Notes under the pieces: model-generated
The model's input: only the letters and a program-made list of their open reading frames with translations
Databases searched by the model: none
Told to the model about the DNA's origin: nothing
In this document: one piece after another, positions 1 through 56,025 of the stretch
Layout of the letters: each line of letters starts with the position of its first letter
Position numbering within the stretch: the stretch's first letter is position 1
Program-made: the position numbers and the translations under genes
Assembly: GCA_029551285.1 (NCBI GenBank)
Contig: JAKPFT010000087.1
Coordinates: 168-64,167, forward strand
Source of the DNA: a bacterium
GTDB lineage: Bacteria > Ratteibacteria > UBA8468 > B48-G9 > DSTR01
Length of the DNA stretch: 64,000 nt
Direction: 5' to 3'

Positions 1-140
1 GGCACCCAGGTCAATGCCCAGGAACATTGTTTCAGCCATATACCATTATTTTAAGGAAAAAGGTTGTCTCGTCAAATCGTCTTGTGGTTTTCTTCCGGTA
101 ACTAAAGGAAGCATGGTAGAATTTAACCGGAGCTGTCACT

Positions 141-1262
141 ATGACCGGAGCAAACAGAAACTTAAAACAATTAGCCAGACAGTGTCAACAGAAGAACTGG
201 CCGGAGAATTTTTCTGATCTGGTGCAGGAATGTGTTGGTATTGACCTTGCCTGTTTTTACGGGAAAAGACACTTGAAGCATCCAGTTCTGGTGGCACCGG
301 GACAGCTGACAGTTCAGGCCAGCCAGGTAGTGAAGATTAAGGAAAGCGGTTATGCTGGCTGTATCCTGAAGTCGGCGGTTGGCGAAGAAGAAAATGGCTA
401 CTGCAGCATGGTTTTCCAGCGGAAGAAAGCAAGCTGGATTAAGACTGTGTACGACGAAGAAGACCTTTGCGGTCGGGAGCCTATTATCCACTGGGATGGT
501 CGGGCCGATACCAGAAATCTGGACCAGTATCTGCTTTTTGCCCGGAAGGCCAGAAGTCTTGATGACCAGGGGTTTTTTGTCGGCGGCTCCTTGCTCTGTC
601 ACCTTCCTGGTCCTGACGAGGAGTTTCATGAAAAAGAATGGAGGTTTACAGTGGGAAAACTCCAGGAAATCGGTTTTGACACCCTGGAGATTGATTTCTG
701 CCCGACCCTGGAGAAAGAAAGCGCGCTGGTGGAGAAAGCCAATATTCTGCGCTGGTATCGCACTGTCCCTGCTCTGGTGAAAAGTGTTGACCCCGGAATA
801 GCCGTCTTCCCGAAGATGCTTAATCTGCGGTGGGGCCTGGATTTTCAACTGGAAATGGCTTCCGCTGCGGTGCAGGGCGGTGCTGACGGATTGGTGGTGG
901 CTAACCGGATTTACCTGTCTGAACTTGGTTGTACCCACGGCGGCCGGATGCTTCGTCAGCAGAATCTTCTTCAGGTTAGAGAAATTCATCGTGCTTTTCC
1001 CCGTCTTCCCATTTCCGCTACCGGTGGTATTTACTCGGGGCGACATATGGCCGGGTATCTTCAGGCAGGTGCTCAAAACATTCAGTTGCTCAGTTATCTG
1101 ATGGGTCGGGTGAAAGCACCCTTCCTGCTGAAGAACGGGTATAAGTTTCAACAGGTTCTTTTTGAACTATTCTTCCATCCGGAGGACGGACTAATACCCC
1201 TGATGATGGAAAATGGCTGTCAGAATATCTGGCAGCTGCGGGAAGTCAGGTTATTGGTTTAG
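141..1262 (+). CDS. Dihydroorotate/dihydropyrimidine dehydrogenase-like FMN TIM-barrel protein
   Basis: 373-aa ORF. GIDL...PVLVAPG N-terminal motif and GADGLVVANR...ATGGIYSG C-terminal barrel motifs are typical of the DHOD/DHPD family. True start uncertain because the window begins just upstream. Confidence 0.5.
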   Translation: MTGANRNLKQLARQCQQKNWPENFSDLVQECVGIDLACFYGKRHLKHPVLVAPGQLTVQASQVVKIKESGYAGCILKSAVGEEENGYCSMVFQRKKASWIKTVYDEEDLCGREPIIHWDGRADTRNLDQYLLFARKARSLDDQGFFVGGSLLCHLPGPDEEFHEKEWRFTVGKLQEIGFDTLEIDFCPTLEKESALVEKANILRWYRTVPALVKSVDPGIAVFPKMLNLRWGLDFQLEMASAAVQGGADGLVVANRIYLSELGCTHGGRMLRQQNLLQVREIHRAFPRLPISATGGIYSGRHMAGYLQAGAQNIQLLSYLMGRVKAPFLLKNGYKFQQVLFELFFHPEDGLIPLMMENGCQNIWQLREVRLLV

Positions 1263-2768: not shown

Positions 2769-4109
2769 TTACTCTGCTTTCCAGTTCTTCAGAAAAACGG
2801 GGATGTAACTGGCTTCTCTCGGACCAAGAAGGATCTTCCAGCCAGGCAGTTCTTCCTCCAGTTCTCCCACCATACCGGCAACGACCCCTGGCAAAATGAG
2901 GGTTCGGTGGGCGATTTTTTCTTCCAAATGCGTCTGCTTAACCAGTTCGGCAATCTTTTCCGCATTAAACTTGTCCGCCGCCCACGCCGTCAGCACAGAC
3001 AATCCTTCAGCATCCTGGACCAGAAGGTAGGCCGGAACCCGAGAATTTTCAATTTCGCCGGAAACGACAAAATAGGTCAGGGAGAAGTTGGTGGTCACCA
3101 GTACGGGTGAGGATGGCCCCGGTTGACCGATTTCATAAAGGCCCTGAGGAGTGGCCATCGGTCGTTGAGGGTCGGTGAAGATATTAAGCCGTTCCAGGAG
3201 TAAGGGGAAAAGGATTTCTCCCTTTAACTCCGGGAGCACTACCAGGCTGGCATATTTGGCGATGGCTAAACAGGCGTGAAGAGCCTGTCTCAGCGGGTCC
3301 TGAGTGAGCGTGCCGGGCATGGTCAGGACCGGATAACCAAGTTCTTTAATGTGTCCCAGGATGGCCCCGCGGCGAATAGTTACCAGTTTCTCCAGCAGTT
3401 CCCTTCCCGAGGAGACTTCCGGATAAAGAACCAGGTCTGCCAGTCCAGGTCCAGAAAGTTTGCCTGCCAGTTCCACCAGTGTTTCAAGAGAAGCCCCGCG
3501 GACAACAAGCGGTAGGGAAAACTCTCTGGCCAGATTACCCATTTGCTCCCAGTTGGTGCTGTCAGCAGCGAAAAGTAGGGGTCGGCTCTGCAGACAACCT
3601 TTAACTGCTTCTCTCAATCTGGCGACTTCCTGACTCATGAGGAGCAGACATTTTCCGGTGGCGCAGGCTTTTTCCACCAGAGAGGAAAATCGGCCCTGCC
3701 CGGTGTCTTCAACGGCAATCAACTCCGCCTGCAGTTTTAAACCGACGCGTTCGTAGGAGAGACGGCCAATGTCAGCCAGTCTGGTAGTTATTTCCTCATC
3801 AGACATTCTCTCCGAGATCAGCACCCCGAGGGCTGGTGGATTGTAGAATGTTTTTTCGTGACGAAAGAGGACCGTTTCCCCTCCAAGTTTGATCTGGTTG
3901 TCTCCAGTGCCCACAGTGACCGTCCGGATGGGCGGGGCTGAGGCTTGAGCCAGCTGATTTTTCCCTTCTTCGCTGAGATGGGGACACCTAACTAATTCTG
4001 TTTTTCCCAGAGCCAGTTGCATGGCAAAGGCCAGACAGGTGGGGAAACCACACTCTTTGCAATTGGTTTTGGGCAGGTACTTGAAAATGTCCAGCGGTTT
4101 CAGAGCCAT
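2769..4109 (-). CDS. acsC: Corrinoid iron-sulfur protein large (gamma) subunit
   Basis: 446 aa. N-terminal CKECGFPTC...C 4Fe-4S motif of CFeSP AcsC, followed by a TIM-barrel-like region. Operon context between acsB and acsE. Confidence 0.85.
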   Translation of the reverse strand: MALKPLDIFKYLPKTNCKECGFPTCLAFAMQLALGKTELVRCPHLSEEGKNQLAQASAPPIRTVTVGTGDNQIKLGGETVLFRHEKTFYNPPALGVLISERMSDEEITTRLADIGRLSYERVGLKLQAELIAVEDTGQGRFSSLVEKACATGKCLLLMSQEVARLREAVKGCLQSRPLLFAADSTNWEQMGNLAREFSLPLVVRGASLETLVELAGKLSGPGLADLVLYPEVSSGRELLEKLVTIRRGAILGHIKELGYPVLTMPGTLTQDPLRQALHACLAIAKYASLVVLPELKGEILFPLLLERLNIFTDPQRPMATPQGLYEIGQPGPSSPVLVTTNFSLTYFVVSGEIENSRVPAYLLVQDAEGLSVLTAWAADKFNAEKIAELVKQTHLEEKIAHRTLILPGVVAGMVGELEEELPGWKILLGPREASYIPVFLKNWKAE

Positions 4110-4136
4110 GAGCCACTCCTTGAAAGTGAGCCGGCG

Positions 4137-6341
4137 TTACATAATCGGTTCCATTTCCAGAGCCGGATGTTTCTTTTCCTGGAGGAATGGTAAAATCGCT
4201 TCTTCCGTGACACCCACCGTTTCATCGGCAATTTTCTCAGGAAGGTCCGGAAGGCCGATTTCCGCCGCCCGTTTTTTTAACCGGTCCATGATCTCTTCCT
4301 TCAAGGCCTTTGGCATCCAGACCAGCCTTCTTATTCCTCCCTCAGCAGCCAGGTACTTACTCTGGGTAATGTTGAACTTGGAATGACCCAGGAATCCGGG
4401 TGTCTGCCGGCCACCGCCGATTGTTCCCGCCAGGGTAGTAAACTTCATGCCGCAGGGCGTTTCGCCTTTATAGTCGCGGTGTACCGTCATGATGCCGTTG
4501 CACATCGGCAGAACCACCGCCACACATTCACAGCAACCACAGGTGGTCATGGGGTCTACCATTAAACTGTAGATACTGACTTTTTCAATAGCGCCCCGGC
4601 TGGCCTGTCGCACAAAATTATTACAGCCTTCAAACTGGCCAAGTTTTTGATTCAAGACTGCACCCTTTTTCACCGGCTGGTTCGGCCCTTTGGGATTAAT
4701 TCTATTAGAACCTCTGCAGTCAAGCCAGGAGAAAGCTCCACACAGACCCGTCCGCTCCGGGGTAACGATGCAGACATGGGTAGGAGCGAAGGACTGACAT
4801 AAGGTGCAGGAATAAAAGGTATCCACCTCTTCGTCAGTCATCCCGGCCAGTCTTTCATCTCTCTTTGTCCAGACAGCCCTCGCCTGTTGAACCAGTTGCT
4901 TAACCGCGGCCTCTTCGGTGTAGATTTTCACCTGCACCTTGTCCAGGATATTGGCGAAAACTTCATGATACTTGGCATGGAGAACAACCCCCAGGTGTTT
5001 CAACAGGAGCCCTTTCTCTCTGGCTTTCTTGCTAATTCTCAGCCAGACAATGTCACGCTGGCCGATATGCATGACCCCGTTGATGTAGTTGAGATAATCG
5101 TGAATGTGACGTTCCAGGATTGGTTCAAAGTCCTCCTGCATTTCCCGTCCGGCCACCTGAACCAGGGTGGCCAGAGGTATCTGGCTTCCTTCGGGTAAGC
5201 TGTCCAGGTCAGGGCCAATGACTTCTATCCGGCCATCTTCCACCTGGTTCAACGGAAGAGAACTCGTCCATTCGCAGGCCAGAGTTTTTGTGCCCCCGGC
5301 TTCCACAAAAAGGTCCTCTTTTCTGATTCTTTCCCCCTCAAAGGCTGGTCCATAGGGAACCGGAATGGGAATTTTACTTACCGTAACTTTTAATCCCCGA
5401 ACCTCAACAGCCCTGGCCACAATCTGGTCATGGGGGACACCGGAAACCACGTGTTCATATGTACACACTCCGGTAGGAAGAATCTGAGGTATATCTGAGT
5501 CAGCGATGGTGGGAAAACCGAAATTGATGGCACCGGCAGCATTAGCGTACCAGCGGTCGGTAACCTCACCCAGGGCGATGACAAAGGCGAAAATCCGGTC
5601 CTTGTTATAGATGAGGATTTTCCGGTACTCGCCGGGCTGGATACCCCCAAAACTCATAGCGGCCCTGACCGCAAACCCAAGAGCAAAGACGGCCTGGGAG
5701 ATATCCGGGCCGAAAGGAACCAATCTTACTGGCCAGCCTAACTGCATCCCCGCGGCCTTAAGCTGTTCGGCAAACGTGGTACCCTGATGGCCAGCGCACA
5801 TGAAGACATAGAGATTTTTTTCCTGAAGTTCCTGAGCAATTCTGGCCGCTATTTTTTCTTCCGGCGCAGCTCCAACGATTGCGGCAAACCCGGGAGCCGT
5901 GCCATCGACAAATTCAATTCCCCGTTTTCTCAGGATGATATCGCTGGCCGCACCCAGCCAGAGTTTGCCCTCCGGCGCCTCTTCTTCCGGGGAATAAAAG
6001 TCAGGGTGCTCAAGGTAGGTAATTGCTTCAGCCATCTCTTCGGCAAAAAGGGTCGCCATTCCGGCATCAAGCACCGGCCCCAGGTATGGCAGATGGACTT
6101 TCTGGTAGACCGGTTCCGGAAGAAGCCTTTCACAGATAGCGAAAACTTTTTCCATATCGGCCAGTTTCCTCACCGGAAGGCCTGACAGCCCATAAATGAT
6201 GGGCAGGTAATAAGCAGTTTCCGGAAAACCAACCTCTGCGCCTGAGCCGTGTTTGTCCATAGCCTGTTGCCATTTTTTCCTGGCTTCGGAAACAATCTCG
6301 TGAGCCCCTCTGATAGCCGCAGCGGCGATAATTTTGGACAT
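4137..6341 (-). CDS. acsB: Acetyl-CoA synthase (CO-methylating), ACS catalytic subunit
   Basis: 734 aa. Shares FYSC(T/V)LCQSFAP(T/N)HVCIVTPER(T/V)GLCGA(F/V)SWLD and the C-terminal ...HPAL(E/T)M(E/D)PIM blocks with Moorella AcsB. Confidence 0.9.
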   Translation of the reverse strand: MSKIIAAAAIRGAHEIVSEARKKWQQAMDKHGSGAEVGFPETAYYLPIIYGLSGLPVRKLADMEKVFAICERLLPEPVYQKVHLPYLGPVLDAGMATLFAEEMAEAITYLEHPDFYSPEEEAPEGKLWLGAASDIILRKRGIEFVDGTAPGFAAIVGAAPEEKIAARIAQELQEKNLYVFMCAGHQGTTFAEQLKAAGMQLGWPVRLVPFGPDISQAVFALGFAVRAAMSFGGIQPGEYRKILIYNKDRIFAFVIALGEVTDRWYANAAGAINFGFPTIADSDIPQILPTGVCTYEHVVSGVPHDQIVARAVEVRGLKVTVSKIPIPVPYGPAFEGERIRKEDLFVEAGGTKTLACEWTSSLPLNQVEDGRIEVIGPDLDSLPEGSQIPLATLVQVAGREMQEDFEPILERHIHDYLNYINGVMHIGQRDIVWLRISKKAREKGLLLKHLGVVLHAKYHEVFANILDKVQVKIYTEEAAVKQLVQQARAVWTKRDERLAGMTDEEVDTFYSCTLCQSFAPTHVCIVTPERTGLCGAFSWLDCRGSNRINPKGPNQPVKKGAVLNQKLGQFEGCNNFVRQASRGAIEKVSIYSLMVDPMTTCGCCECVAVVLPMCNGIMTVHRDYKGETPCGMKFTTLAGTIGGGRQTPGFLGHSKFNITQSKYLAAEGGIRRLVWMPKALKEEIMDRLKKRAAEIGLPDLPEKIADETVGVTEEAILPFLQEKKHPALEMEPIM

Positions 6342-6384
6342 TGGTGAACTCCTTTTGCCATACTAATTCTGCCGGGGAAATATC

Positions 6385-8292
6385 TCAGAGTTCGCGCCTC
6401 ATAGCCATGTCAAAAAGGATTCTTTCCCTGGCTTTATCAATCCCTAATTTTTTTCTTTGTTTATCAATATGGGCCAGCATCAAACCGGCCATCTTTTTTG
6501 GGTCCGGCTCAAAGGCCCATCTTCCTCCCAGTTCGTTCTCCACCTCGTGAAACAGGTAATGCGTCAGGTTTCTGCCTCCCAGAACAGGAAAGGTGACTCC
6601 AAAAACAGTAAAAACTCCGGAAGCCACAAAATACTGTCCGATGCTGATGGCTTTTTCACTCATCCATTCGGGAGCCGCACCGGCGACGGGCAGGTCAGAA
6701 AGGTCATCTCCCAGTCCCCCTTCTCTGACCACCGCTGCCGCAGCCACCAGAATCCGGGAATTATCCACACAGGAGCCCAGATGGAGTACCGGTGGGATGC
6801 CGACGGCTTCACAGACCTCGCGCAATCCCTGGCCGCAGTAGTCAAGGCCTTTCACCGGGTCAAGCAGGCCGGCTCTGGCTGAGGCAATCGCCGAGCAACC
6901 TGTCTGGAGAACAAGAACGTCGTTGTGAACCAATTCTTTGACCACCGTAAGGTGGCCGCTATCGTGTTCTACCTTACAATTATTGCAGCCAACCACCCCG
7001 GCCACCCCTCTGATGCGTCCCCCGATGATGTTATCGTTCAATGGTCGGTATGAGGACCGAAACATTCCGCCAAGAAGATACGCGATGGTCTCGTGAGAAA
7101 ATCCGGCAACCAGGTCAACCTCTTCACCAGGCAGGTCAACCGGTTTGCCTTTTCTCTGACCAAAGTTTTCAATAGCCTGCCGCACAAGTTCCCGGGCTTT
7201 CTCCAGGGCTGTTTCCTCGGTAAATTGAACATGGACAGCGCCAGGGATCCTGGCTTTGTCTGAGGTCGTCACAATTTTCGTGTGATAACAGGCAGCAATC
7301 GCGGGCAAAGACTGCATGATGCACTGGATATCAACCGCCATTAAGTCAACGGCACCGGTGGTGATGGCTGTCTCCTGATTGAGAAAGTTGCCCATAAGAG
7401 GAATGCCGTGCCGCATGAGAATTTCGTTGGCGGTGCAGCAAATTCCGGCGATGTTGATACCCCGGGCTCCTTTCTCCCTGGCCTTTTGAATGAGGTCGGG
7501 TTCTTCCGCTGCGACTACAATCATTTCTGAAAGAAGGGGTTCGTGTCCGTGGACGATGATGTTGACGGTATCCTTCTTCAAAACCTGGAAGTTGACCTGG
7601 CTGACCATCGGCTGGGGAATACCAAAGAGTACATCCTGCAGCTCCGTGGCGATCATGGAACCACCCCAGCCATCACTTAAGGCACAGCGGCTGGCCTGAG
7701 ACATAAGACTGTGGTATTCCTGGTCAGTTCCCATGTGGGTACGGTGAAGGGCTTCCACCACTTCCCGGTCAATCCCGCGTGGTACTATCCCCAGTTTTTT
7801 CCACAGGTCATATCTTTTAAGCGGTGCGCGCCTCAGGAAAAAAAGTTCGCCTTCCTGCTGACCAAACTGATTTTGCGCCCACTGACCAACCTTGAGAGCC
7901 AATTCTTCCACAGTAAGATTTTTCGGCTCCAGACCAAGTTCCAGTGCCAGTTTAACCAGCTTATACTCATCGCGGATCTGGTACCCGGGGGCTTCCTTCC
8001 TGGCAACTTTAATTAGTGTTTCGGCCACCGCGCGGCCGTGGTCAGAATGAGCGGAAGCACCAACCGCCACCATCCGGAGAAAATTTCTTGCAGTAATGGT
8101 ATCAGCATCGGCACCGCAGACACCTAACTGGGGACCTTCACCAAAAGGGTCAATACGACACGGCCCCATCGCACAGTTGCGACAGCAAATACCTAACTGG
8201 CCGAACCCGCACTGAGGTTGTTGTCTGGCCAGTCTTTCCCAGCATAGTTCCAGTTCTGCTGAGCCGGCCGGTGATGGAAACTGGTTATCCAT
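6385..8292 (-). CDS. acsA: Anaerobic Ni-dependent carbon monoxide dehydrogenase catalytic subunit
   Basis: 635 aa. N-terminal Cys cluster CGFGQLGICCRNCAMGPCRI is typical of CooS/AcsA. Lies directly upstream of acsB. Confidence 0.9.
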   Translation of the reverse strand: MDNQFPSPAGSAELELCWERLARQQPQCGFGQLGICCRNCAMGPCRIDPFGEGPQLGVCGADADTITARNFLRMVAVGASAHSDHGRAVAETLIKVARKEAPGYQIRDEYKLVKLALELGLEPKNLTVEELALKVGQWAQNQFGQQEGELFFLRRAPLKRYDLWKKLGIVPRGIDREVVEALHRTHMGTDQEYHSLMSQASRCALSDGWGGSMIATELQDVLFGIPQPMVSQVNFQVLKKDTVNIIVHGHEPLLSEMIVVAAEEPDLIQKAREKGARGINIAGICCTANEILMRHGIPLMGNFLNQETAITTGAVDLMAVDIQCIMQSLPAIAACYHTKIVTTSDKARIPGAVHVQFTEETALEKARELVRQAIENFGQRKGKPVDLPGEEVDLVAGFSHETIAYLLGGMFRSSYRPLNDNIIGGRIRGVAGVVGCNNCKVEHDSGHLTVVKELVHNDVLVLQTGCSAIASARAGLLDPVKGLDYCGQGLREVCEAVGIPPVLHLGSCVDNSRILVAAAAVVREGGLGDDLSDLPVAGAAPEWMSEKAISIGQYFVASGVFTVFGVTFPVLGGRNLTHYLFHEVENELGGRWAFEPDPKKMAGLMLAHIDKQRKKLGIDKARERILFDMAMRREL

Positions 8293-8301
8293 GTTAACCT
8301 C

Positions 8302-9594
8302 CTAAGAAAAGAAAATCTGCTGCCCCTCAGGGGAAACTGATTCTCTGAAACCCGTATCTTTCTCTAACTTTTCTCTGAGATAGCCGTAGTCAAAGTAACT
8401 CTTGCCAAGGAAATTCTTGTAGTTTTTAAGGTCAATTCCAGCCCGGATGACAGCCGTATAAAAGCCAGCCTGTTGAGGGTCACCGCCAACCATAACAAAA
8501 CCGACCAGCCGGTTTTTCCGCAGAATGAAACGCTGGTAGTTCCAGCTTTTTCTGTCCTGTTTTTCCCTGATTTCGTCACTTTTTTCTGGCCGCAGGATAC
8601 CGGCGGAAACCAGCGGCAGCCCGAAAAATTCCGTGGCATTCGCCGGGAAGGAGCCGGGATATTTCCGGCGCGCCCCGGCCATATTTAAACCAGCCAGTCT
8701 TCCCTGTTCCTGGGCGGTTAGCCACAGGCCGTTAACAGTGGACTCACCGGTAATCATATCCCTGGTTTCGGCCACATCACCAGCGGCAAACACATCAGGG
8801 CAACCGGTCTGAAGAAAGTCATCAACGACAATACCATAACGACATTCCGTGCCGGCCTCCTTTCCCAGTTCCTTGTTGGGAAAAACTCCCTTTCCGACAA
8901 TGGCCAGGCCGGTTTCCATCTTTTCGCCGTTGTCCAGTTTTACGCCAGACAGTTCCTGCTCACCCAGCATTTCCACTGGCGCCAGGCCGGTTCTGATGAT
9001 AAGTCCGTTTGCCTGCAGGCAATCAGCCACTATCTCAGCAGCCTCCGGGTTGACCAGCTGGGAAAGGAGATGGTGTGATTTGACAATGATTTGAACCTTT
9101 AGACCCCTTTTCTTAAGAGCCGTAGCCGCCTTCAGTCCGATTAATCCACCACCAAAAATTACTGCCTGTTTACATTTCTCAGCCCGGGCGAGAATTCCCT
9201 GGGCATCAGTCAAAGTCCAGAAGTGATAAATTCCTTCTATTTGCTCTCCGGCCACCCCCAGGTTTCTGGGAAGGGAACCGGTCGCCACCAGCAGCCGGTC
9301 GTAACGCAGTTGTTTCCCGGAAGCGGTTTGCACCCTTTTCTCCCCGGGGATGATTCGGGTGACGCGTTCACCTAACAGAAGCGCCACCCGGTTTTTACGA
9401 AAATAATTCTCATCCTTGAGACAGAGGTCCTTTTTTGAGTGGGTTCCGGCGAGGTAATTGGTGATTAAACACCGGGCGTAAGGCAGGTACGGTTCTGCGG
9501 AGACCAGGGTAATCTCACCCTGCTGGTCCTCTTCGCGGATACCTTCAATGGCGTTCAGGCCAGCGGCACAGCCGCCGACAATCAGGTAATGCAC
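8302..9594 (-). CDS. FAD/NAD(P)-binding pyridine nucleotide-disulfide oxidoreductase (CODH-associated)
   Basis: 430 aa. Two Rossmann GxGxxG motifs (VGGCAAG; FGGGLIGLKAA) and a GD(V)A motif. Overlaps cooF by 13 nt. Confidence 0.7.
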   Translation of the reverse strand: MHYLIVGGCAAGLNAIEGIREEDQQGEITLVSAEPYLPYARCLITNYLAGTHSKKDLCLKDENYFRKNRVALLLGERVTRIIPGEKRVQTASGKQLRYDRLLVATGSLPRNLGVAGEQIEGIYHFWTLTDAQGILARAEKCKQAVIFGGGLIGLKAATALKKRGLKVQIIVKSHHLLSQLVNPEAAEIVADCLQANGLIIRTGLAPVEMLGEQELSGVKLDNGEKMETGLAIVGKGVFPNKELGKEAGTECRYGIVVDDFLQTGCPDVFAAGDVAETRDMITGESTVNGLWLTAQEQGRLAGLNMAGARRKYPGSFPANATEFFGLPLVSAGILRPEKSDEIREKQDRKSWNYQRFILRKNRLVGFVMVGGDPQQAGFYTAVIRAGIDLKNYKNFLGKSYFDYGYLREKLEKDTGFRESVSPEGQQIFFS

Positions 9595-10058
9595 CGGCTT
9601 CTCCTTTTCTTTTTCACTTCCTCAAACTCACTTGCCTGGCCGAAGAACAGTGCTTTGGTGGGGCAACTACTAACACACGGCGGCACTTCCTCATCCTGAC
9701 ACAACTCGCATTTTACCGCCACTGGATTTTCTCGGTCCATAGCAATAACCCCGTAGGGACAGACCATCAGACAGGAATAACAGTGAACACATCTGTCCCG
9801 GTTGATGACCGGAACTTCGTCTTTCCTGGTAATGGCTCCGGAGATGCAGGCTGAGAGGCAGTAAGGCTCGGGGCATTGACGGCATTGAAGAACCAGGGAC
9901 TTATCTGCCTGTCTGGTCACCCTGATTCTGGGTACCGGACCCGGTTTTTCCAGGATTGCCTCCGGCAGGTATTTGGTGCGCGAATGTTTCAGCCAGCAGG
10001 CCAGTAAACAACTGCGGCAGGCCAGGCATCTTTCCTGGTCAAAAAAAATTCTCTTCAT
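9582..10058 (-). CDS. cooF: CooF-like 4Fe-4S ferredoxin (CODH electron-transfer subunit)
   Basis: 158 aa with four CxxCxxCxxxCP-type clusters. Sits between acsD and the oxidoreductase. Confidence 0.7.
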   Translation of the reverse strand: MKRIFFDQERCLACRSCLLACWLKHSRTKYLPEAILEKPGPVPRIRVTRQADKSLVLQCRQCPEPYCLSACISGAITRKDEVPVINRDRCVHCYSCLMVCPYGVIAMDRENPVAVKCELCQDEEVPPCVSSCPTKALFFGQASEFEEVKKKRRSRCIT

Positions 10059-10060
10059 GG

Positions 10061-11041
10061 CTATATCTGTTCCGGGTTAACCGGCTTGTTCAGAACCGGT
10101 GTCATCAGTTCTGCGCTCCAGTCAAGAAAAAGTTTAGCCGCCGCAGGGTGTCTCATCACGACAATGTCGGCGCCGGCCAGCGTCAGCAAAGCTGCCGTGA
10201 TGGCCTCCATCATTATTCCCCTCGTTTTTTCATCACCCATGGCCGGGTTCTCGCTCCGGGGCAGGATGGCTTCCTTAGTTTTCCACACTTCTTTAGCCAG
10301 ATTACAGACCATGGGAAAACCTAACTTATCATCCTGTTGGATTAAGGCGGCGATGCGGTCCCTTTCCATTACGGAATAAGTGTACTCCAGCCCGTAACCA
10401 AGGCCGCCAGTGGTGGGGTCAATAATGATTTTGTTTTCGGGCACTCCCAGTTCCAGGAGAAGGATGTTTAACTGCTTGGCTAAATTGACATCAATCGGTG
10501 AGCTGGCGATGACTACCTGACGATAGGCGATGGCTGCTGCTCCTATGGCCTTATAGTTTTTCTCCTGGACCGGCCCTATGGCCACATTGCGACCAGCAGC
10601 GACTTCCGCGACTAACTTCAGAACTTCAGCATCCTTCTGGAGGTGGTCACAACCGAAAATTAGTAGCGGTACCTCCACTGTCTTCAGAACTGCTTCAACG
10701 GTTTTGACAGCTTCGGCCGCCGAACGGTTGGAACCCATGGGGTCAATACTGGCCAGGTGCAGCGCGATCGCTCTGGCCTGATACTTTTCTACATTTACTC
10801 TGGCCCAGGTGGCAGGGTCATTCAACGCTGATCCGTAAGGTACCAGACACGCTTCCGGCCAGTTCTCCGGAATTTCATCTCTGACTTCCATAGCGACCAG
10901 CGGTCCGCGGTGACCATCTCCGTCAAAGACGTGGTAATTAAAAGTTTTCTGACCGCCCGCCGTGACCGAGTTTTCACCAGTGCCCAGGGTGACTTCTCTT
11001 ATTTTTCCGGTGTAGGTCGGACCGGGAATTTGCAGGCTCAT
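10061..11041 (-). CDS. acsD: Corrinoid iron-sulfur protein small (delta) subunit
   Basis: 326 aa TIM-barrel protein in the acs cluster. Size and position fit the CFeSP delta subunit. Confidence 0.75.
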   Translation of the reverse strand: MSLQIPGPTYTGKIREVTLGTGENSVTAGGQKTFNYHVFDGDGHRGPLVAMEVRDEIPENWPEACLVPYGSALNDPATWARVNVEKYQARAIALHLASIDPMGSNRSAAEAVKTVEAVLKTVEVPLLIFGCDHLQKDAEVLKLVAEVAAGRNVAIGPVQEKNYKAIGAAAIAYRQVVIASSPIDVNLAKQLNILLLELGVPENKIIIDPTTGGLGYGLEYTYSVMERDRIAALIQQDDKLGFPMVCNLAKEVWKTKEAILPRSENPAMGDEKTRGIMMEAITAALLTLAGADIVVMRHPAAAKLFLDWSAELMTPVLNKPVNPEQI

Positions 11042-11227
11042 CTTTCCCCCAGATTTTTATGAATTTCTTTCCCGAATTACTTACCGCTCTCGCTGCCGAA
11101 ACCTTCCCCGAACCAATACCGTTCAGCACTTTTCAGGTACCGAATCATCTCTTCTCTTTCCCGAAGATTCTTCAACCAGGCCAGCGGTTTCCTTGGTTTT
11201 CCTGGCTGGAAGCGCTGGTTGCTCTGT

Positions 11228-11986
11228 TCAGGTTTCATGGCTGTCCTCCATCCTGAAAAGAATTGTTTCCACCGCCCTCAGAAAATGAGGCGCTTTTTCA
11301 GAGAAAGGTTTCCCTGCGATTTCTGTCTCGCGAATGGTTTCCTCGTAGGGGAGAAATCCGAGAAGGTTCAAACCTTTCAACTTTTCCCGAAGAAAGTCCT
11401 CTTCGCTCTTACTTCTCACGAAGTTACCCACCACGCCAATCTTTTTGAGGCCAAGTTGCCGGGCCAGAGTATCAATCCGATAGGCTGTCTGAACGCTTTT
11501 TTCGCCCGGTTCGGTAAGGATGATGAGCCAGTCAATTCCCATGGTGGTACCCCGGCCCAGATGCTCAATTCCGGCTTCCATGTCAAGGATGACAAACTCC
11601 TCACGCCTCAGAATCAGATGCCGCAACAGGGCTTTCAAAAAGGCATTTTCCGGGCAGGTGCAACCTGAACCTGCTGCTCTGATGGTGCCCATCACTCCCA
11701 GGAGAAGGTTGCCCTGGCGAAGGAAATACTTTTCCGGGATGTCGTCTACGCGGGGGTTAAGTTTGAAAACAGGCGAGGTTTCACTTTCGGTTCGCTCCTG
11801 AATGAGCTCCTTCATCTCTGACAGCGGCACAACGCTACCCTCTAATCCAAGCGTCAGCTGAAGATTCATGGCCGGGTCAGCGTCAATCAAAATCACTCTG
11901 AAGCCACGACGCTGTAACACCCACGCTAAACCAGCGGTGAAGGTTGTCTTGCCAGTTCCACCCTTGCCGCTGACAGCAATTTTCAT
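11228..11986 (-). CDS. cooC: CooC/AcsF-type Ni-insertion ATPase (MinD/ParA fold)
   Basis: 252 aa. Starts directly at the Walker A motif (MKIAVSGKGGTGKTT). First gene of the minus-strand acs unit. Confidence 0.85.
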   Translation of the reverse strand: MKIAVSGKGGTGKTTFTAGLAWVLQRRGFRVILIDADPAMNLQLTLGLEGSVVPLSEMKELIQERTESETSPVFKLNPRVDDIPEKYFLRQGNLLLGVMGTIRAAGSGCTCPENAFLKALLRHLILRREEFVILDMEAGIEHLGRGTTMGIDWLIILTEPGEKSVQTAYRIDTLARQLGLKKIGVVGNFVRSKSEEDFLREKLKGLNLLGFLPYEETIRETEIAGKPFSEKAPHFLRAVETILFRMEDSHET

Positions 11987-11993
11987 AGTTTAA

Positions 11994-12022
11994 AGTATAA
12001 AGGCTACCCCTGTCACTGTCAA
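11994..12022 (-). promoter_or_regulatory. Sigma70-like promoter for the acs operon (TTGACA-17 bp-TATACT), coordinates approximate
   Basis: On the minus strand I read a perfect -35 hexamer, a 17-bp spacer and a near-consensus -10 that ends about 7 nt before the cooC ATG. This would make the transcript leaderless or nearly so. Confidence 0.35.
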
Positions 12023-12047
12023 GAGGGATTGATTCATCAGAAATTCC

Positions 12048-12210
12048 AACATAAGAAAAGTTGTTGAGGAGTATGTCTAACTTCGGGAAGATTTCTGCCC
12101 ACACGCCCTTGTCGGAGACAGGACTACGAACGCTGCCGCTTTGCCTGCTTGTCTTGTAACTGCGCCATGGGATAGCGTGTGGTGAAATCTTAGCTCGTTG
12201 ACACCCCGGA
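12048..12210 (+). repeat. Copy 1 (short form) of a 135-260 bp repeated element with conserved 5' and 3' blocks
   Basis: About 123 bp essentially identical to copy 2. 5' block ...GAGTATGTCTAACTTCGGGAAGATTTCTGCCCACACGCC..., 3' block ...GCTGCCGCTTTGCCTGCTTGTCTTGTAACTGCGCC...GAAATCTT..CGTTGACAC. The terminal blocks can pair (AAGATTTC / GAAATCTT). Confidence 0.8.
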
Positions 12211-12314
12211 TTTATGCCGGGATTTTAAGGGCATTTCTCGCACGGTTCACTTCAGCGGGAAAACTTGCCACGGAGGGTGCGGTGCGGAAAGATAGCGATG
12301 TCTTACATGGTTTA

Positions 12315-12665
12315 TCAAACAATGAGAAGGGCCGTTTTCAGAGACCTTGCCACTTTCTCCATTATTTCTGCGGGAAGAGACCCAACCTTCTTCAGTAGAA
12401 TTGTCTCATGGACAACGGCTATCTTCTCGGTCTTTATAAAAGAGGGCCTCTTAAGCCCCGTTTGAGAAAATGTTGTAGTGTGTTCGCTGATCTCCACCCA
12501 GGTCTCACGCAATATTGCGCTTGCTGGCGCTCTTGAGAAAATCCCGATTACAATCACATCTTCCCCGTGAGTTACCCACACCAGCACGGGTCTGACTTTC
12601 TCAGAGGTGAAATCGGTAAAGGGGAATCGCACCAGCCAGATTTCTCCCCGTTCAGGTTTGGGCAT
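12315..12665 (-). CDS. Type II toxin, PemK/MazF family (start chosen at the internal MPKPERGEIWLV)
   Basis: Has the MazF/PemK hallmark (G(E/D)IW.V.F.P..G.E...RP.LV) and is about 116 aa from the internal Met. Overlaps the upstream small ORF by about 14 nt, as type II TA pairs typically do. Confidence 0.55.
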   Translation of the reverse strand: MPKPERGEIWLVRFPFTDFTSEKVRPVLVWVTHGEDVIVIGIFSRAPASAILRETWVEISEHTTTFSQTGLKRPSFIKTEKIAVVHETILLKKVGSLPAEIMEKVARSLKTALLIV

Positions 12666-12855
12666 CGTAGATATCATCCTCTTCCAGCCACTCTTTGAAA
12701 CCTGTTTCAGCAACGGTCATCATGGCAGCAGTCTCAGCTCTCTTTTCTAAGGCCTCGGTGATAGCAAGAATCTCTCTGGGAGGCAGTTGAAGAATCATCT
12801 CAAAAACCATCTTCCTGATTTCTTCAGTACTCATGTTCAGGATAACTTTAGCCAT
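12652..12855 (-). CDS. Putative antitoxin (67 aa) cognate to the MazF/PemK-like toxin
   Basis: Small acidic protein (C-terminal EEDDIYDAQT) directly upstream of, and overlapping, the toxin gene. Family not recognised. Confidence 0.4.
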   Translation of the reverse strand: MAKVILNMSTEEIRKMVFEMILQLPPREILAITEALEKRAETAAMMTVAETGFKEWLEEDDIYDAQT

Positions 12856-12994
12856 TTACCACCTCCGTGATAGTCTTATGGCCGTTTCCAGCACGTTTTT
12901 GTGTACCGCTCCATTATACCACTGGCAATGCGATTATAAAACCTGATGAACGCCAGGTTAAAATCCGACATAAAAAAGGCAGTGAAAAATGTAT

Positions 12995-13127
12995 TTAACT
13001 TCAGAAAGATTTCTGCCCACACGCCCTTGTCGGAGACAGGACTACGAACGCTGCCGCTTTGCCTGCTTGTCTTGTAACTGCGCCATGGGATAGCGTGTGG
13101 TGAAATCTTAGCTCGTTGACACCCCGG
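12995..13127 (+). repeat. Copy 2 (short form) of the repeated element
   Basis: Same sequence as copy 1 from AAGATTTCTGCCC through TTGACACCCCGGA. Lies about 40 nt upstream of the 13169 CDS, in the same orientation. Confidence 0.8.
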
Positions 13128-13168
13128 ACCTTATATCAGAATTTCAGGATTCATGATAGAATACTGGT

Positions 13169-14269
13169 ATGGCACAGGGGAAAAGGGTACCGGCGGTTTT
13201 CATCGCAGCTACCCGGCAGAACGACGGAAAGACCGTCTTAAGTTTAGGGCTGGTTCTGGCGCTCCAGAAAAAGTATCACCAGGTTGGTTTTATCAAACCG
13301 GTTGGCCAGAAGTACGTCGTGGTAGAAGGACAGAAGGTGGATAAAGACGCGCTGCTGATGAAGCAGGTTTGTTCTCTTAAGGAAAACCTGAAAGATATCA
13401 ATCCCATTGCTGTGGAGGAAGGTTTTACCAGACGGTACTTAGAAAGACCGCATGTTCACGGCCTGATGCAGCAGATTAAGGAAAGTTACATCCGGGTGGC
13501 AGAGGGAAAAGATGTTATCGTGATTGAGGGTACCGGACACGGAGGAGTGGGGACAGTCTTTGATCTGAGCAACGCGGCAGTGGCCAGGCTTCTGGAAGTA
13601 CCGGTGGTTTTAATTTCTATCGGGGGAATTGGCCGGCCGATTGACGAGATCGCCCTGAACAGGGTCTTTTTTGCTAACTATGGAGTAAGTTTGAAAGGTG
13701 CCCTGATCAACAAGGTACTGCCTGAGAAAAAGAGCCTGGTAGAAAAATATGTTTCTATCGGACTGACCCGGCAGCAACTTTCTCTGCTGGGAGTTATTCC
13801 TTATGTGCCGGTGCTGGCTCATCCGACAGTCGGACAGGTTTTTGAAACCGTTAAGGGCAAATTGTTGGTTGGGGGAGAAAGGATGCGGCAGCAGGTGCTG
13901 AATGTTCTGGTGGGGGCGATGACCCCCCGGCACGCTCTGGATTATTTCCGTCCCGGTTCCCTGCTTATTACTCCGGGAGACCGGGAAGATATCATTCTGG
14001 CAGCGCTGTCACATTCATCCACGATGAGCACTGGTTCCCCGATGATTTCTGGAATTGTTCTTACCGGTGGGTTGGCACCTCACAAGACTATTCTGGAACT
14101 TCTGGTGAGGAGTAATCTTCCTACACTGCTGTCTACAGAAGGAACCTACGAGGTGGCCTCAATGGTTCATTCCATGGAGGTGAAAGTGAGGGCGGAAGAT
14201 ACAGAAAAAGTTGAAATTGCCAGGCGGCTGGTGGCGGAAAACGTTCGGGTGGAGGAACTTTTCAACTGA
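13169..14269 (+). CDS. Phosphotransacetylase N-terminal-like protein (BioD-like P-loop plus DRTGG domain), standalone
   Basis: 366 aa. The N-terminus resembles the BioD-like domain of long Pta (VFIAATRQNDGKTVLSLGLVLAL). A DRTGG-like segment (LLITPGDREDIILAAL) follows. No PTA_PTB catalytic domain is present. Confidence 0.5.
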   Translation: MAQGKRVPAVFIAATRQNDGKTVLSLGLVLALQKKYHQVGFIKPVGQKYVVVEGQKVDKDALLMKQVCSLKENLKDINPIAVEEGFTRRYLERPHVHGLMQQIKESYIRVAEGKDVIVIEGTGHGGVGTVFDLSNAAVARLLEVPVVLISIGGIGRPIDEIALNRVFFANYGVSLKGALINKVLPEKKSLVEKYVSIGLTRQQLSLLGVIPYVPVLAHPTVGQVFETVKGKLLVGGERMRQQVLNVLVGAMTPRHALDYFRPGSLLITPGDREDIILAALSHSSTMSTGSPMISGIVLTGGLAPHKTILELLVRSNLPTLLSTEGTYEVASMVHSMEVKVRAEDTEKVEIARRLVAENVRVEELFN

Positions 14270-16167
14270 TGAAACAGGTCAGCCTAACCTTTTATCCAGA
14301 AGGGATTCGGATAACGGTCCCAGCCGGTACCGATCTTCTTACCGCAGCCTTGAAAGCAGGACTGGCGCTCAGTTCCTCCTGTGGCGGCAAAGGAGTGTGT
14401 GGTCGGTGCCGGGTAAAAATTAAAACCGGGGATGTTGAAAGCGAACCGACAGGGAAAATTTCTGCCGAAGACCGCAGAACCGGTATTTACCTGGCCTGTC
14501 GCACTCTGGTACGCGGGGATACTGAGGTAGAAATTCTTCCTCAGACCAGGGTTTCCTTCAGGCCCGGGGTAGAAATTTTCCGCAGGGAAGAAGTAACCCC
14601 GGAAGCAAAAGGTTGTTTATTCTGGCTCTTTCCCCGGCACGCCCTGACCAGAAAATTTGTTGTTCCCATGGGAAAACTGGTGGCTCAACGGCCAGGGAGC
14701 GACTTCGGTAGAATTGAGTATTTCTTAAAGGAACAGGGTTCAGGAGAGATTTCGGTTAACCTTGCTACCCTACGCCGGTTACCGATGGTACTTCAGCAAA
14801 ACCGGGAACTCGTTACAGTGACTGTCGGTGAACGGCCGGGATTGACGGAAGTGATTCTGGTAGAACCTGGAGATACGAGCTTTTCTCATTACGGCGTGGC
14901 CGTAGATGTGGGCACAACGACCATTTCCGCCTGTCTGGTTAATCTTAACACCGGGCAGGTATTAGGAACTGAGATGGCTTTCAACCGGCAGGTCTCCTAC
15001 GGAGAAGATGTTATCACCCGGATGATGATGGCCGAAAAGGAGGCTGGTCTGGAGCAACTTCACCACGCCGTGGTGGAGACGATTAACGAACTAATCCGGA
15101 GTTTGACTCTTGGCTCCAGGGTGAATTTGACTGATATTACCGCGGTGGCCTGCTCCGGAAATATGACCATGATGCATCTTCTCTTAAAAATTAACCCTTC
15201 TTTTCTGCGGCGAGAACCGTATGAACCCAGCACCAACAATTTCCCGGTAATAGAAGCTGCCGAGGTGGGGATCAGGGTTAATCCTTCGGCGTTACTGGCC
15301 GCGGTGGGCGGAGTTTCTTCCTATGTAGGAGGGGACATCACTGCGGGGGTATTGACCCTGGGGCTGCTCAATAGTTCCTCTCTTTGTATGCTGTTAGACA
15401 TCGGGACCAACGGTGAAATGGTTCTGGGTAACAAAGACTGGTTGGTCTGCTGTTCCGCTTCCGCCGGACCGGCTTTTGAAGGCAGCGGCGTTCAGGATGG
15501 GATGAGAGCCATACCCGGCGCCATTGAGGAAGTGAGGATTCTTTCTGGCCCGGCCGGAGAACTGGTTGAAGTGGAAACCATTGCCGGCCATCCGCCCATA
15601 GGTATCTGCGGGTCAGGCTACATGTCTCTTTTAGCCGCTCTTTTTGAAAAAGGTATTATTGACCGCTCAGGTCACTTTACAGAAGTGAGCCAGAGGATGG
15701 TGGGACGCCGGGAAGAAAGAGGTTATCAGGTGGTGGCGGCAGAGGCATCCGGTCACGGCCGGCCGATTGTGATTACCCAGATTGACATTGAGAATCTGCT
15801 GCGGGCGAAAGCCGCTATTTACGCCGGGATGACCAGCCTGGTGCGACACGCTGGAATTTCCTTCCAGGATATAGATAGAATCTACATTGCGGGTGGCTTC
15901 GGCAGCAGAATCAATATTCGCAGTGCTATTAAAATTGGTCTGTTACCGGACCTGCCCGAAGAACGTTTCCAGTTTGTGGGCAACACTTCCCTTCAGGGGG
16001 CTTACTGGTTTTTGATGAGTAAGTCGGCCCGGGAGGCAAGCCGGGAGATAATCAACCGTATGACACCTGTAGAACTGTCGCTGGACCCTGAATATATGGA
16101 GGAGTACCTGCGAGCCCTTTTCATTCCTCACACTGATTTGAATCTGTTTCCCTCGGTAAGGAAATGA
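14269..16167 (+). CDS. Reductive activator of corrinoid Fe-S protein (RACo/AcsV-like): N-terminal 2Fe-2S ferredoxin plus ASKHA ATPase
   Basis: 632 aa. N-terminal plant-type ferredoxin motif (SSCGGKGVCGRCRVKI) followed by a long ASKHA/DUF4445-like region. Size and WL context match RACo. Confidence 0.75.
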   Translation: MKQVSLTFYPEGIRITVPAGTDLLTAALKAGLALSSSCGGKGVCGRCRVKIKTGDVESEPTGKISAEDRRTGIYLACRTLVRGDTEVEILPQTRVSFRPGVEIFRREEVTPEAKGCLFWLFPRHALTRKFVVPMGKLVAQRPGSDFGRIEYFLKEQGSGEISVNLATLRRLPMVLQQNRELVTVTVGERPGLTEVILVEPGDTSFSHYGVAVDVGTTTISACLVNLNTGQVLGTEMAFNRQVSYGEDVITRMMMAEKEAGLEQLHHAVVETINELIRSLTLGSRVNLTDITAVACSGNMTMMHLLLKINPSFLRREPYEPSTNNFPVIEAAEVGIRVNPSALLAAVGGVSSYVGGDITAGVLTLGLLNSSSLCMLLDIGTNGEMVLGNKDWLVCCSASAGPAFEGSGVQDGMRAIPGAIEEVRILSGPAGELVEVETIAGHPPIGICGSGYMSLLAALFEKGIIDRSGHFTEVSQRMVGRREERGYQVVAAEASGHGRPIVITQIDIENLLRAKAAIYAGMTSLVRHAGISFQDIDRIYIAGGFGSRINIRSAIKIGLLPDLPEERFQFVGNTSLQGAYWFLMSKSAREASREIINRMTPVELSLDPEYMEEYLRALFIPHTDLNLFPSVRK

Positions 16168-16922
16168 TCACTGTTGGAGTTGCCGGCAAGGGTGGGACAG
16201 GCAAAACTACAGTCTGTGCCCTGACAATTGTGGCGCTGAAAAGAGCTGGCAAGAGACCTCTGCTGGCCGTTGACGCTGACCCCAGCAGCATGCTGTGTGA
16301 GGTGCTGGGAGTGCTGGCGCCCCCAAGTTTGGTCAGTCTGGTGGATGAGGTTGGTCGCTCTTTTGATAAACTGCCGCAGGGCATGGACAAGAGCAGATAC
16401 TTAGAGTACCGGATTCGCGAGGCGGTCAGTGAAAACAGGGATTTTGACGTCCTGCTGATGGGACGCACCGAGGGGCCAGGCTGCTACTGTTATGCCAATC
16501 ACCTGCTTCGCGATCATCTTGACCGGCTGGAGAAAAATTACCAGTTTGTGGTCATTGATAATGAGGCCGGACTGGAGCATCTTTCCCGGCGGACCACCAG
16601 ACAACTGGACCTTCTTCTTCTGACCACCATAACCAGCCGAACTTCCCTGCTAAGTGTGGAGCGAATCCTGGAGATGGTTAATGACAGGAATTTAGATATC
16701 CGGGTGGGGAAAGTCTGTCTTGTGGTGAACGAAATGGCAGGAAATTCTTTGCCTTCACTGGCAGAAAAGTTTTCTCTGCCTTCTTTCCGTCTGCCGGTTG
16801 ACAGGGAAATATTAACTCGCAGTGAAAAAGGCCAGGGGTTGATGGACCTTCCTGATGATTCTCCTGCTCTTGTCAGCATCAAAGATAATCTTCTACCGAT
16901 TCTAAACTCCCTGGTCAATTAG
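16164..16922 (+). CDS. cooC: Second CooC/AcsF-type Ni-insertion ATPase
   Basis: 252 aa. Walker A at the N-terminus (MITVGVAGKGGTGKTT). Overlaps the RACo gene by 4 nt. Confidence 0.8.
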   Translation: MITVGVAGKGGTGKTTVCALTIVALKRAGKRPLLAVDADPSSMLCEVLGVLAPPSLVSLVDEVGRSFDKLPQGMDKSRYLEYRIREAVSENRDFDVLLMGRTEGPGCYCYANHLLRDHLDRLEKNYQFVVIDNEAGLEHLSRRTTRQLDLLLLTTITSRTSLLSVERILEMVNDRNLDIRVGKVCLVVNEMAGNSLPSLAEKFSLPSFRLPVDREILTRSEKGQGLMDLPDDSPALVSIKDNLLPILNSLVN

Positions 16923-32185: not shown

Positions 32186-32330
32186 GGAAGGCTCCTTCGG
32201 TTGGCAGGGTTTCTGGCTCATTTTTCTATTGTTTTTAGCCGCACTTCACCTATGCTGCAATTTTACCCCGGCACACCCTTTTCTGTCAAGTCGCTTTTTT
32301 TAGACGCTAAAATACCCGCATAAAGGCATG

Positions 32331-32590
32331 GTTAACGAGGGAAGATTTCAAGACACGGTAGCCGATGGCGCAGTTACAAGACAAGCACCCAAAGCGGCAG
32401 CGTTCGGTAAGCGTCCCCCAAAAGGCAATCCGGGACGGCCACCTTACCCGGCGGTGTCTCCAGTTCGCCGCATGACGAATGAGTTCGCGCCAGCAACCGA
32501 TTGGGTGTGTAATCTTGTCTGCAACAAGGCGTGTGGGCAGAAATCTTCCCGAAGTTAGACACCTTTTTTTCACAACCTTCGTTATCTCGT
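32331..32590 (-). repeat. Copy 3 (long form, minus orientation) of the repeated element, in the 5' leader of the 30302..32185 gene
   Basis: Reverse complement begins ...GGTGTCTAACTTCGGGAAGATTTCTGCCCACACGCC and ends ...GCTGCCGCTTTGGGTGCTTGTCTTGTAACTGCGCC...GAAATCTTCCCTCGTTAACC. Carries about 105 bp of extra internal sequence homologous to copy 4. Confidence 0.75.
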
Positions 32591-55838: not shown

Positions 55839-55875
55839 AAAAAAAGGACTGGCCCTGTAGAAAGGCCAGTCCTGG
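55839..55875 (-). terminator. Intrinsic-terminator-like hairpin (10-bp perfect stem plus U7 on the minus strand) ending about 2 nt before the RBS of the giant gene; candidate attenuator
   Basis: Plus strand AAAAAAA-GGACTGGCC-ctgtagaaa-GGCCAGTCC. Read on the minus strand this is a stem-loop followed by UUUUUUU, then CCGGAGG (RBS) and the ATG. Coordinates approximate. Confidence 0.4.
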
Positions 55876-56025
55876 TAAACTGCCGAGAAAGAAAAATTTT
55901 TCATCGGCGCCGCCGTTTAGTATTTTGACGCTACCTGCTGTGCTCTCGTTTAGTTGTTAATCTTTAACAGGCATTATACCCTTTTTTTCTCTTCTGCGCA
56001 AGATATGTGAATTTGACCGGAAGTT

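Follow-up and report, generated by a model that had tools for sequence, protein, structure and literature searches.

Four copies of a repeat in the 64-kb window

The stretch analyzed here, 64,000 nucleotides (nt) of contig JAKPFT010000087.1 (assembly GCA_029551285.1) and hereafter called the window, contains four homologous intergenic repeats, designated c1 to c4. Copies c1 and c2 bracket a toxin/antitoxin cassette between a cooC-like gene and a gene for a DRTGG protein, c3 lies next to a surface-protein gene, and c4 lies between a gene encoding 4515 amino acids (aa) and a TPR-repeat gene. We conclude, with a probability of roughly 85%, that these repeats are MITEs (miniature transposable elements with inverted repeats) of an uncultured Omnitrophota bacterium and that they carry the inverted ends of a Tn5/IS4-like insertion sequence. 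The copies and the cargo of the first pair are as follows.

12038-12228, plus strand: c1, short-form MITE of 191 bp, with left inverted repeat CAGAAATTCCAACATA and right inverted repeat TATGCCGGGATTTTAA
12315..12855, minus strand: cargo between c1 and c2, a PemK/MazF toxin gene (12315-12713) and a gene for a putative antitoxin of 67 aa (12652-12855)
12957-13147, plus strand: c2, short-form MITE of 191 bp, with the same ~102-bp internal deletion as c1
32307-32598, minus strand: c3, long-form MITE of ~291 bp, flanked by CGTCTAA at 32599-32605 and 32300-32306
56018-56308, plus strand: c4, long-form MITE of 291 bp, flanked by AATTTGAC at 56010-56017 and 56309-56316

Mechanical repeat detection (direct families D12–D14 and inverted pairs I1–I6) and alignment (A1) both recovered these copies where the original prediction had placed them, and a family profile built from all copies (nhmmer) found exactly four in the window, with E values from 1e-19 to 1e-93. 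The shared 5′ and 3′ blocks, the CTTGTC..GACAAG hairpin, and the extra core of the two long copies (~102 bp in our alignment, and absent from c1 and c2) that had been described were likewise present. The limits of the elements changed. When the window copies were aligned with related loci from metagenomes, homology continued outward beyond the first-reported boundaries, up to terminal inverted repeats of 16–18 bp (CTAAAATTCCGACATAAG ... CTTATGTCGGAATTTTAG) that occur at both ends of all copies with 0–4 mismatches per end. The real ends are thus the inverted repeats CTAAAATTCCGACATA and TATGTCGGAATTTTAG, and the true lengths are 191 or ~291 bp rather than 135–260 bp. The complementary pair GGGAAGATTT/AAATCTTCCC, which had been taken for the termini, does exist and is internal to the elements. 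A search of the window for the 15-mer core of the inverted repeat, allowing up to three mismatches, gave nine matches where 0.9 were expected, and seven of the nine were element ends.

The family extends beyond the window, as the original prediction had suggested checking. Scanning metagenomes with the invariant 3′ block hit six contigs and gave four loci outside the window (L008, which is the same locus as L010, L009, L011, and L012), which adds to the family at least four copies from the same metagenomes; these probably belong to the same genome as the window. An exact-pattern scan for the 3′ block in species-representative genome contigs gave no matches, and a blastn search of a plasmid collection returned only chance matches of 25 nt. 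MITE sizes were 191 bp and 291–296 bp, and the short form appears to be an internal deletion derivative of the long form.

We considered and rejected a small-protein reading of the repeat. An open reading frame (ORF) from (A/G)TG to a TAA or TAG inside CTTGTCTTGTA is open in six of eight copies. In its middle the reading frame shifts from copy to copy, and no homologue of this recurrent small ORF turned up when 5.8 billion proteins were searched with a profile. No tRNA was found in the region. A mechanically listed ORF at 56041-58965 (plus strand) begins within c4 and continues, in the same frame, into the TPR-repeat gene; this is an artefact of the listing and not a fusion, and the real start of that gene is probably at 56383.

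Target-site duplications and an empty site

Exact direct repeats of 7–8 bp, in register and directly outside the inverted repeats, flanked 8 of 14 independent elements, compared to 0 of 174 controls with mismatched flanks. This was a second check that the original prediction had proposed, and the duplications found flank either single elements or the c1–c2 unit as a whole. Their sequence varies by site:

c3: CGTCTAA
c4: AATTTGAC
L009: GGTTTCC
related element L071: AAAACCT
related element L074: ACAATAAT
related element L109: ATTGAAA
full element in L125: ATGCATG
12031..12037: GATTCAT, left copy of the duplication around the whole c1-toxin/antitoxin-c2 unit
13148..13154: GATTCAT, right copy of the same duplication

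Neither c1 nor c2 has a direct repeat of its own; GATTCAT flanks c1 on the left and c2 on the right, and the 1110-bp unit of c1, MazF/antitoxin genes, and c2 therefore represents one insertion. This unit is absent from relatives. In three contigs from the closest of them (L013–L015, labelled Candidatus Omnitrophica, with DRTGG proteins 76–77% identical to that encoded here), the cooC–DRTGG spacer is 67–101 bp, compared to 1182 bp in the window. Removing the unit and one GATTCAT leaves a 65-nt spacer that can be aligned to that of L013, including its –35 and –10 boxes. The spacer in L013–L015 is an empty site, in other species. We found no polymorphism at the level of strains: all same-strain contigs carry the c1-cassette-c2 unit, and exact-protein look-ups with the proteins surrounding c3 and c4, made to find strain variants at those sites, returned no record.

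The two copies in the unit share the same internal deletion (TACG|...|AACGC) and are identical over their central ~120 nt; their outer arms differ. By eye, the left arm of c1 resembles the complement of the right arm of c2, and the left arm of c2 resembles that of the right arm of c1. Two histories would account for this arrangement. A composite transposon using the outer ends of the two MITEs may have moved as a unit, or a 918-bp circle containing one MITE and the cassette may have recombined into a resident MITE. Both fit, and we do not choose between them. A MITE-bounded MazF cassette would represent one way of moving toxin-antitoxin genes between sites upstream of promoters.

An autonomous partner with a Tn5-like transposase

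A scan for the inverted repeat identified 98 loci, many of them in Omnitrophota genome bins and often at contig ends, as expected because repeats break assemblies. Five of these loci (L104, L022, L026, L094, and L057) contain complete or nearly complete elements of 2.27–2.30 kb (2272–2299 bp) bounded by the same inverted repeats, with both ends perfect in L104. Because the ends of the window repeats are also those of transposase-bearing insertion sequences of 2.3 kb, we identify the repeats as MITEs. The 2.3-kb partner elements are in other Omnitrophota genomes than that of the window.

Each partner has two genes. The first encodes a protein of 135–144 aa with a DUF6788 domain, and the second a protein of 505–517 aa with a DDE_Tnp_1 domain (Pfam PF01609, E 3e-17). 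The best NCBIfam match of the larger protein was transpos_IS4_1 ('IS4 family transposase') at 52.4 bits, below the cut-off of 115. This transposase family is rare, with 44 proteins at E < 1e-20 among 5.8 billion, one of which is named 'transposase [Candidatus Omnitrophota bacterium]'. A sequence search of the PDB with the transposase found nothing. Its AlphaFold model (predicted local distance difference test score, pLDDT, of 81) gave Tn5 transposase (1MUH) as the best Foldseek match, with an E value of 3.7e-9 and a template-modelling (TM) score of 0.45–0.5 over ~450 residues, and Tyr402, Arg405, Glu409, and Lys417 are invariant (Y-2-R-3-E-7-K). In the mechanism that we propose, this Tn5-like transposase, supplied in trans, would cut the MITE at its inverted repeats, and the excised MITE would then be pasted into a staggered 7–8 bp cut.

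Several other loci are worth recording in their own right. In L114, a DUF6788 gene (800-1138, minus strand) lies directly upstream of an IS66-type DDE transposase gene (1-816, minus strand), and DUF6788 may thus belong to several insertion-sequence families as a modular accessory gene. In L120 (2344-2386), two copies of the 2.3-kb element stand head to tail with a 7-bp spacer, TCTCATA, which could be a tandem dimer, an insertion beside the end of another copy, or an effect of assembly. In L109, on the plus strand, a 228-nt MITE with the same ends, starting at the pattern match, is inserted immediately to the right of sequence resembling the inverted repeat (AAAAATTCCAACATA), which suggests occasional targeting of element ends.

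A number of observations weigh against the transposon reading or narrow it. The full elements in L104 and L022 lack a target duplication, and in three MITE copies the duplication is degraded or missing. The window contains no transposase of this kind, and none was found in those samples holding the window organism that were checked, so that mobilization in trans is only inferred for the window genome. The interior of the MITE has no similarity to that of the insertion sequence, and the MITE is therefore no simple deletion derivative of it. Several metagenome contigs that span the repeats are visibly chimeric. Finally, the core of the long form covaries between diverged families (see below), which is not required of a plain selfish MITE, and selection in compact genomes could be behind part of the association with promoters to which we now turn.

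Elements sit at a fixed distance upstream of promoters

One end of the element lies 14–18 bp (mode 15) upstream of the –35 box of a sigma-70-type promoter that reads outward. Going outward, the layout is element end, 14–18 nt, TTGACA, 16–18 nt, and a TATAAT-like hexamer. In 149 unique flanks (chance matches included), with hexamers counted at five or more of six matching positions, TTGACA-like hexamers peaked at offset 15 (19 flanks), with 37 within offsets 14–18 over a background of ~1 per offset, and TATAAT-like hexamers peaked at offset 38 (17 flanks; background ~2). A further pattern, a strong –10 at the right distance combined with a weak –35, occurred in 17 flanks. In the window family, all eight copies have a promoter at one end and one end only: the left end in c1, c2, c4, L009, and L011, and the right end in c3, L008, and L012. 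Among full elements, oriented by their transposase gene, the promoter signature was found at 17 of 20 distinct right-end flanks and at 1 of 17 left-end flanks. The predicted promoters next to the window copies are these:

11994..12022, minus strand: promoter-like TTGACA-17-TATACT reading into the cooC-like gene, –35 15 nt from the left end of c1, called by a promoter scan
12913..12940, minus strand: promoter-like TTTATA-16-TATAAT with an upstream TG, assigned to the antitoxin/toxin operon; c2 has its left end 16 nt away; called by the scan
32260..32289, minus strand: promoter-like TTGACA-18-TAAAAT, assigned to the surface-protein gene; c3 has its right end 17-18 nt away; called by the scan
55973..56001, minus strand: TTGCGC-17-TATAAT, reading in the direction of the 4515-aa gene; c4 has its left end 16 nt away; found by script and by eye

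The site at c4 has a perfect –10 and a weak –35, and was not called by the independent scan tool. These promoters are host DNA and lie outside the element, because the target duplications fall between element and –35 and the spacers vary by site. The original prediction had located most copies in 5′ leaders. They lie instead upstream of predicted promoters, and their proximity to gene starts reflects this docking and not membership in predicted leaders. At the c1–c2 site, the insertion came between the –35 and the –10 of the DRTGG promoter and lies exactly 15 nt from the –35 of the cooC promoter.

The sharp distance peak, the orientation bias, and the c1–c2 case lead us to infer directed target choice, beyond the mere survival of harmless insertions. 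Candidates for what reads the promoter are the transposase itself, bound RNA polymerase, and the DUF6788 protein. Specifically, we lean, with little more than even confidence, towards a model in which the family is actively guided to sigma-70-type promoters by reading promoter DNA or the RNA polymerase bound there, possibly via the DUF6788 protein, and integrates in one orientation ~15 bp upstream of the –35, at roughly position –50. The competing explanation, that MITEs insert at random and that promoter-proximal positions are what purifying selection leaves in a compact genome, draws strength from the very short intergenic spacers (67–101 bp in relatives), which offer few neutral sites, most of them bordering promoters. 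Such filtering, however, does not predict a sharp peak at 15 nt without a one-sided tail, nor the almost exclusive use of the right end by full elements; and the c1–c2 site was not neutral, because the insertion there split a –35 from its –10. We therefore regard random insertion followed by selection as a tentative explanation that is rather unlikely to account for the pattern, at about one chance in four.

An inward promoter, in which the host supplies the –35 and the inverted repeat supplies TAAAAT, was also considered. The geometry fits, and such promoters are weak or absent at the window copies and were not called by the scan; we rejected this candidate. As a separate observation, the window's two best sigma-70-like promoters (TTGACA-18-TAAAAT and TTGACA-16-TAAAAT) both continue past the –10 in a manner resembling the inverted repeat TAAAATTCCGACATA, as TAAAATTGCAGCATA and TAAAATTCCGGTACA (32251-32265 and 62755-62769, both minus strand), a resemblance that mimicry, relic ends, or coincidence could explain. 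The –10 of the DRTGG gene (TAGAAT, within 13148-13171) ends 6 nt before the ATG, without a Shine-Dalgarno sequence, and that of the relative L013 (9975-10003) is TAAAAT; judged from these features, the gene looks leaderless.

A palindromic element with a covarying core

Over its whole length, the element forms a near-perfect palindrome, and its predicted folding is strong in every form considered:

plus strand, RNA: –135.2 kcal/mol, z –8.1
minus strand, RNA: –134.6 kcal/mol, z –8.4
plus strand, single-stranded DNA: –73.0 kcal/mol, z –8.3

Because folding is just as good for the reverse strand and for single-stranded DNA, we attribute the fold to a DNA palindrome without strand preference. The long copies are predicted to form a stable rod (z –5.6 and –3.7).

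Covariation had been proposed as a further check, and its result depended on the comparison. Within the closely related copies, RNAalifold found one compensated pair, which is uninformative. The inverted-repeat scan had also uncovered a second MITE family (L074, of 296 bp, L041, L018, L043, L053, L106, and L081), likewise rod-shaped and ~50–60% identical to the window family over its whole length. RNAalifold/MAFFT alignment with these distant members was misaligned, and we replaced it by writing a core structure, building a covariance model, and aligning both families to it. In this alignment, which is fitted to the structure and to which 3–4 lineages contribute, 91.9% of cells in the core were paired, compared to 28–43% when partners were slid, and 15 of 44 pairs had changed on both sides, compared to a mean of 7.8 in shuffles (none of 500 reached 15). 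The signal came mostly from three helices. On the modelled strand, G-T pairs outnumbered A-C pairs by 15 to 6, which is weak evidence. Several unpaired motifs are conserved (GAACTC, CAGACAC, GTAAGGT, and CCGAACGCT..GCTTT). Nothing in the full insertion sequences corresponds to the core. It may take part in transposition as single-stranded or cruciform DNA, bind a protein, or act as RNA, or its pairing may result from correction between palindrome arms; the MITE core might be a functional single-stranded nucleic-acid structure.

Other features of the window

The genes at 2769-11986 (minus strand) and 13169-16922 (plus strand) form an acetyl-CoA synthase/CO dehydrogenase cluster that also includes cooC-like ATPases and RACo, a corrinoid activator. 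Its gene order is kept in Omnitrophota relatives, and this ordinary metabolic cluster served for synteny. The giant 4515-aa ORF (42278-55825, minus strand) contains tandem repeat units of ~150 nt at 42594-44557 (repeat families D1–D5), and a strong terminator-like hairpin (55845-55873; 12 pairs and a T-tract) lies just upstream of its start codon. A Y1 (HUH) protein of 227 aa is encoded at 58949-59632 (minus strand), with no associated repeat family seen in the window.

Alternative identities of the repeat

Folding is also what would recommend the proposal that the element is first of all a structured RNA, either a small RNA gene or a cis-regulatory leader, and that its spread is incidental. 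The long copies form a stable rod, the full element has a z score near –8, core pairing is kept between diverged families with many compensated pairs, G-T pairs exceed A-C pairs on the modelled strand, and some unpaired motifs are conserved. The palindrome, however, folds as well on the reverse strand and as single-stranded DNA, and the two short copies lack the whole core. Predicted promoters fall between element and gene (c3 and c4) or point away (c1, c2, and c4), so that no copy would occupy a leader position, and orientation to neighboring genes varies. Searches of Rfam 15 gave no match in the window at gathering score and, for the elements, only chance-level matches at E ≤10 or ≤1, in keeping with the original statement that no known riboswitch or small RNA was recognized. 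The inverted repeats, the target duplications, and the ends shared with a transposase-bearing element already explain the spread. We consider a structured RNA improbable as the nature of the element, and that half of the original prediction is not supported. Its other half, a MITE- or REP-like mobile element, is borne out for the MITE, given the inverted repeats, the duplications, and the partner.

The same evidence bears on a REP- or PATE-like palindrome moved by the HUH (Y1) transposase-like gene at 58949-59632, which had been put forward as the mobilizer. The element is palindromic, the Y1_Tnp domain gene (Pfam E 1e-7) lies 2.6 kb from c4, and its best NCBIfam match is a REP-associated tyrosine transposase; that match, however, is under the family cut-off (36.9 versus 80 bits). 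Y1 transposases of the IS200/IS605 and REP-associated types act on subterminal hairpins and leave neither terminal inverted repeats nor target duplications. Both are present here, and the same ends bound elements with a DDE transposase; the matching enzyme is Tn5-like, and mobilization by the weakly matching Y1 protein seems very improbable. We would place at the same low level the possibility that the repeats are integron attC-like recombination sites with a toxin-antitoxin gene cassette. GTCTAAC near the 5′ side fits the inverse core site of attC, RYYYAAC, GTTGAC/GTTAAC lies near the 3′ side, and the toxin-antitoxin pair is reversed between two copies, a frequent arrangement in chromosomal integrons. 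These boxes, however, are internal, with ~35 and ~25 bp separating them from the true ends, and the copies are 1–24 kb apart rather than arrayed. A Pfam scan of 30 larger ORFs of the window, to which those at 36.9–42.3, 1.2–2.7, and 62.6–64 kb did not belong, found no integrase. The flanking duplications of 7–8 bp are variable and the ends match a DDE transposon, and the attC reading was dropped once true ends and duplications had been seen.

Significance and relation to known systems

Our results describe what appears to be a new MITE/IS4-like family with apparent promoter-directed insertion. The class of element is ordinary; the unusual insertion rule and the unexplained structured core are its uncommon features. 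An undescribed transposon family, MITE and autonomous partner together, occurs in a candidate phylum known only from metagenomes, and it explains assembly breaks and odd intergenic repeats in Omnitrophota. If the docking is true targeting, it would offer a simple example from bacteria of a cut-and-paste transposase that reads a general signal of transcription. It would then bear on how transposons spare compact genomes and rewire upstream regulatory DNA, and might provide a tool for promoter-proximal insertion. Within the literature covered, which was incomplete, we found no paper on DUF6788, on MITEs of Omnitrophota, or on targeting of promoter-upstream sites by a bacterial insertion sequence.

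Prokaryotic MITEs are described as elements of 50–800 bp with terminal inverted repeats of at least 10–15 bp, target duplications of 2–10 bp that differ between sites, neither a transposase nor other conserved coding capacity, more than one copy per genome, and a partner whose ends match (PMC11602168). The window family has this size, the inverted repeats and duplications, no coding capacity, dispersed copies, and, elsewhere, a same-ended partner. Like the Correia elements of Neisseria, ERIC, and MITEAba12, its long and short variants differ by an internal block, and its copies are non-coding, less than 300 bp, bounded by inverted repeats and short duplications, dispersed between genes, and rod-like when folded. 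It differs in its Candidatus Omnitrophota host, in a sequence unrelated to that of any described family we found, in its fixed position relative to promoters, and in a branched core that covaries between diverged families. The c1–c2 unit resembles other MITE-bracketed cargo in having two directly repeated copies around the cargo and a single target duplication outside. Here, by contrast, the cargo is a MazF toxin-antitoxin pair, the copies are alike in the center and unlike in both arms, and the similarities between arms are likewise compatible with a circle having recombined into a copy already in place.

The partner resembles the IS4 family, with Tn5/IS50 as archetype, in its DDE_Tnp_1 domain, its best NCBIfam match, its Tn5-like predicted fold, and a Y-x2-R-x3-E motif. 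It differs in having the lysine seven residues past the glutamate, where the canonical motif, Y-(2)-R-(3)-E-(6)-K, has six, and in an NCBIfam score far under the cut-off (52 versus 115 bits). By ends and duplication length, the IS4 subgroup ISPepr1 seems closest. Its published description gives ends of YT-AA-YTT---A, direct repeats of 7–8 bp, and a size of 1500–1600 bp, and reports only an AT-rich preference for insertion (De Palmenaer et al., 2008; PMC2266710). The 7–8 bp duplications of our family match, and its ends, which start with CT, fit YT-AA-YT and agree at seven of nine consensus positions, as judged against the published consensus. Relative to the same description, the partner differs at the other two of nine positions, in being 2.3 kb rather than 1.5–1.6 kb long, in its extra upstream DUF6788 gene, and in insertion that is promoter-associated and orientation-specific.

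For the insertion rule itself, the nearest parallels come from more distant systems. Tn7 at attTn7 and the yeast retrotransposons Ty3 and Ty1 at RNA polymerase III promoters insert in a site- and orientation-specific manner, and the family described here is like them in its fixed distance from a recognized landmark, its single orientation, and its sparing of coding sequence. It differs in that the landmark is an ordinary sigma-70-type promoter, available at many sites per genome, in that the enzyme is a Tn5-like DDE transposase, and in that the system is known here from sequence alone. To our knowledge, promoter-guided insertion at many sites has not been described for any bacterial DDE transposon. 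Active guidance, if true, would amount to a many-site 'safe harbour' strategy comparable to that of Ty3 and Ty1 at RNA polymerase III genes.

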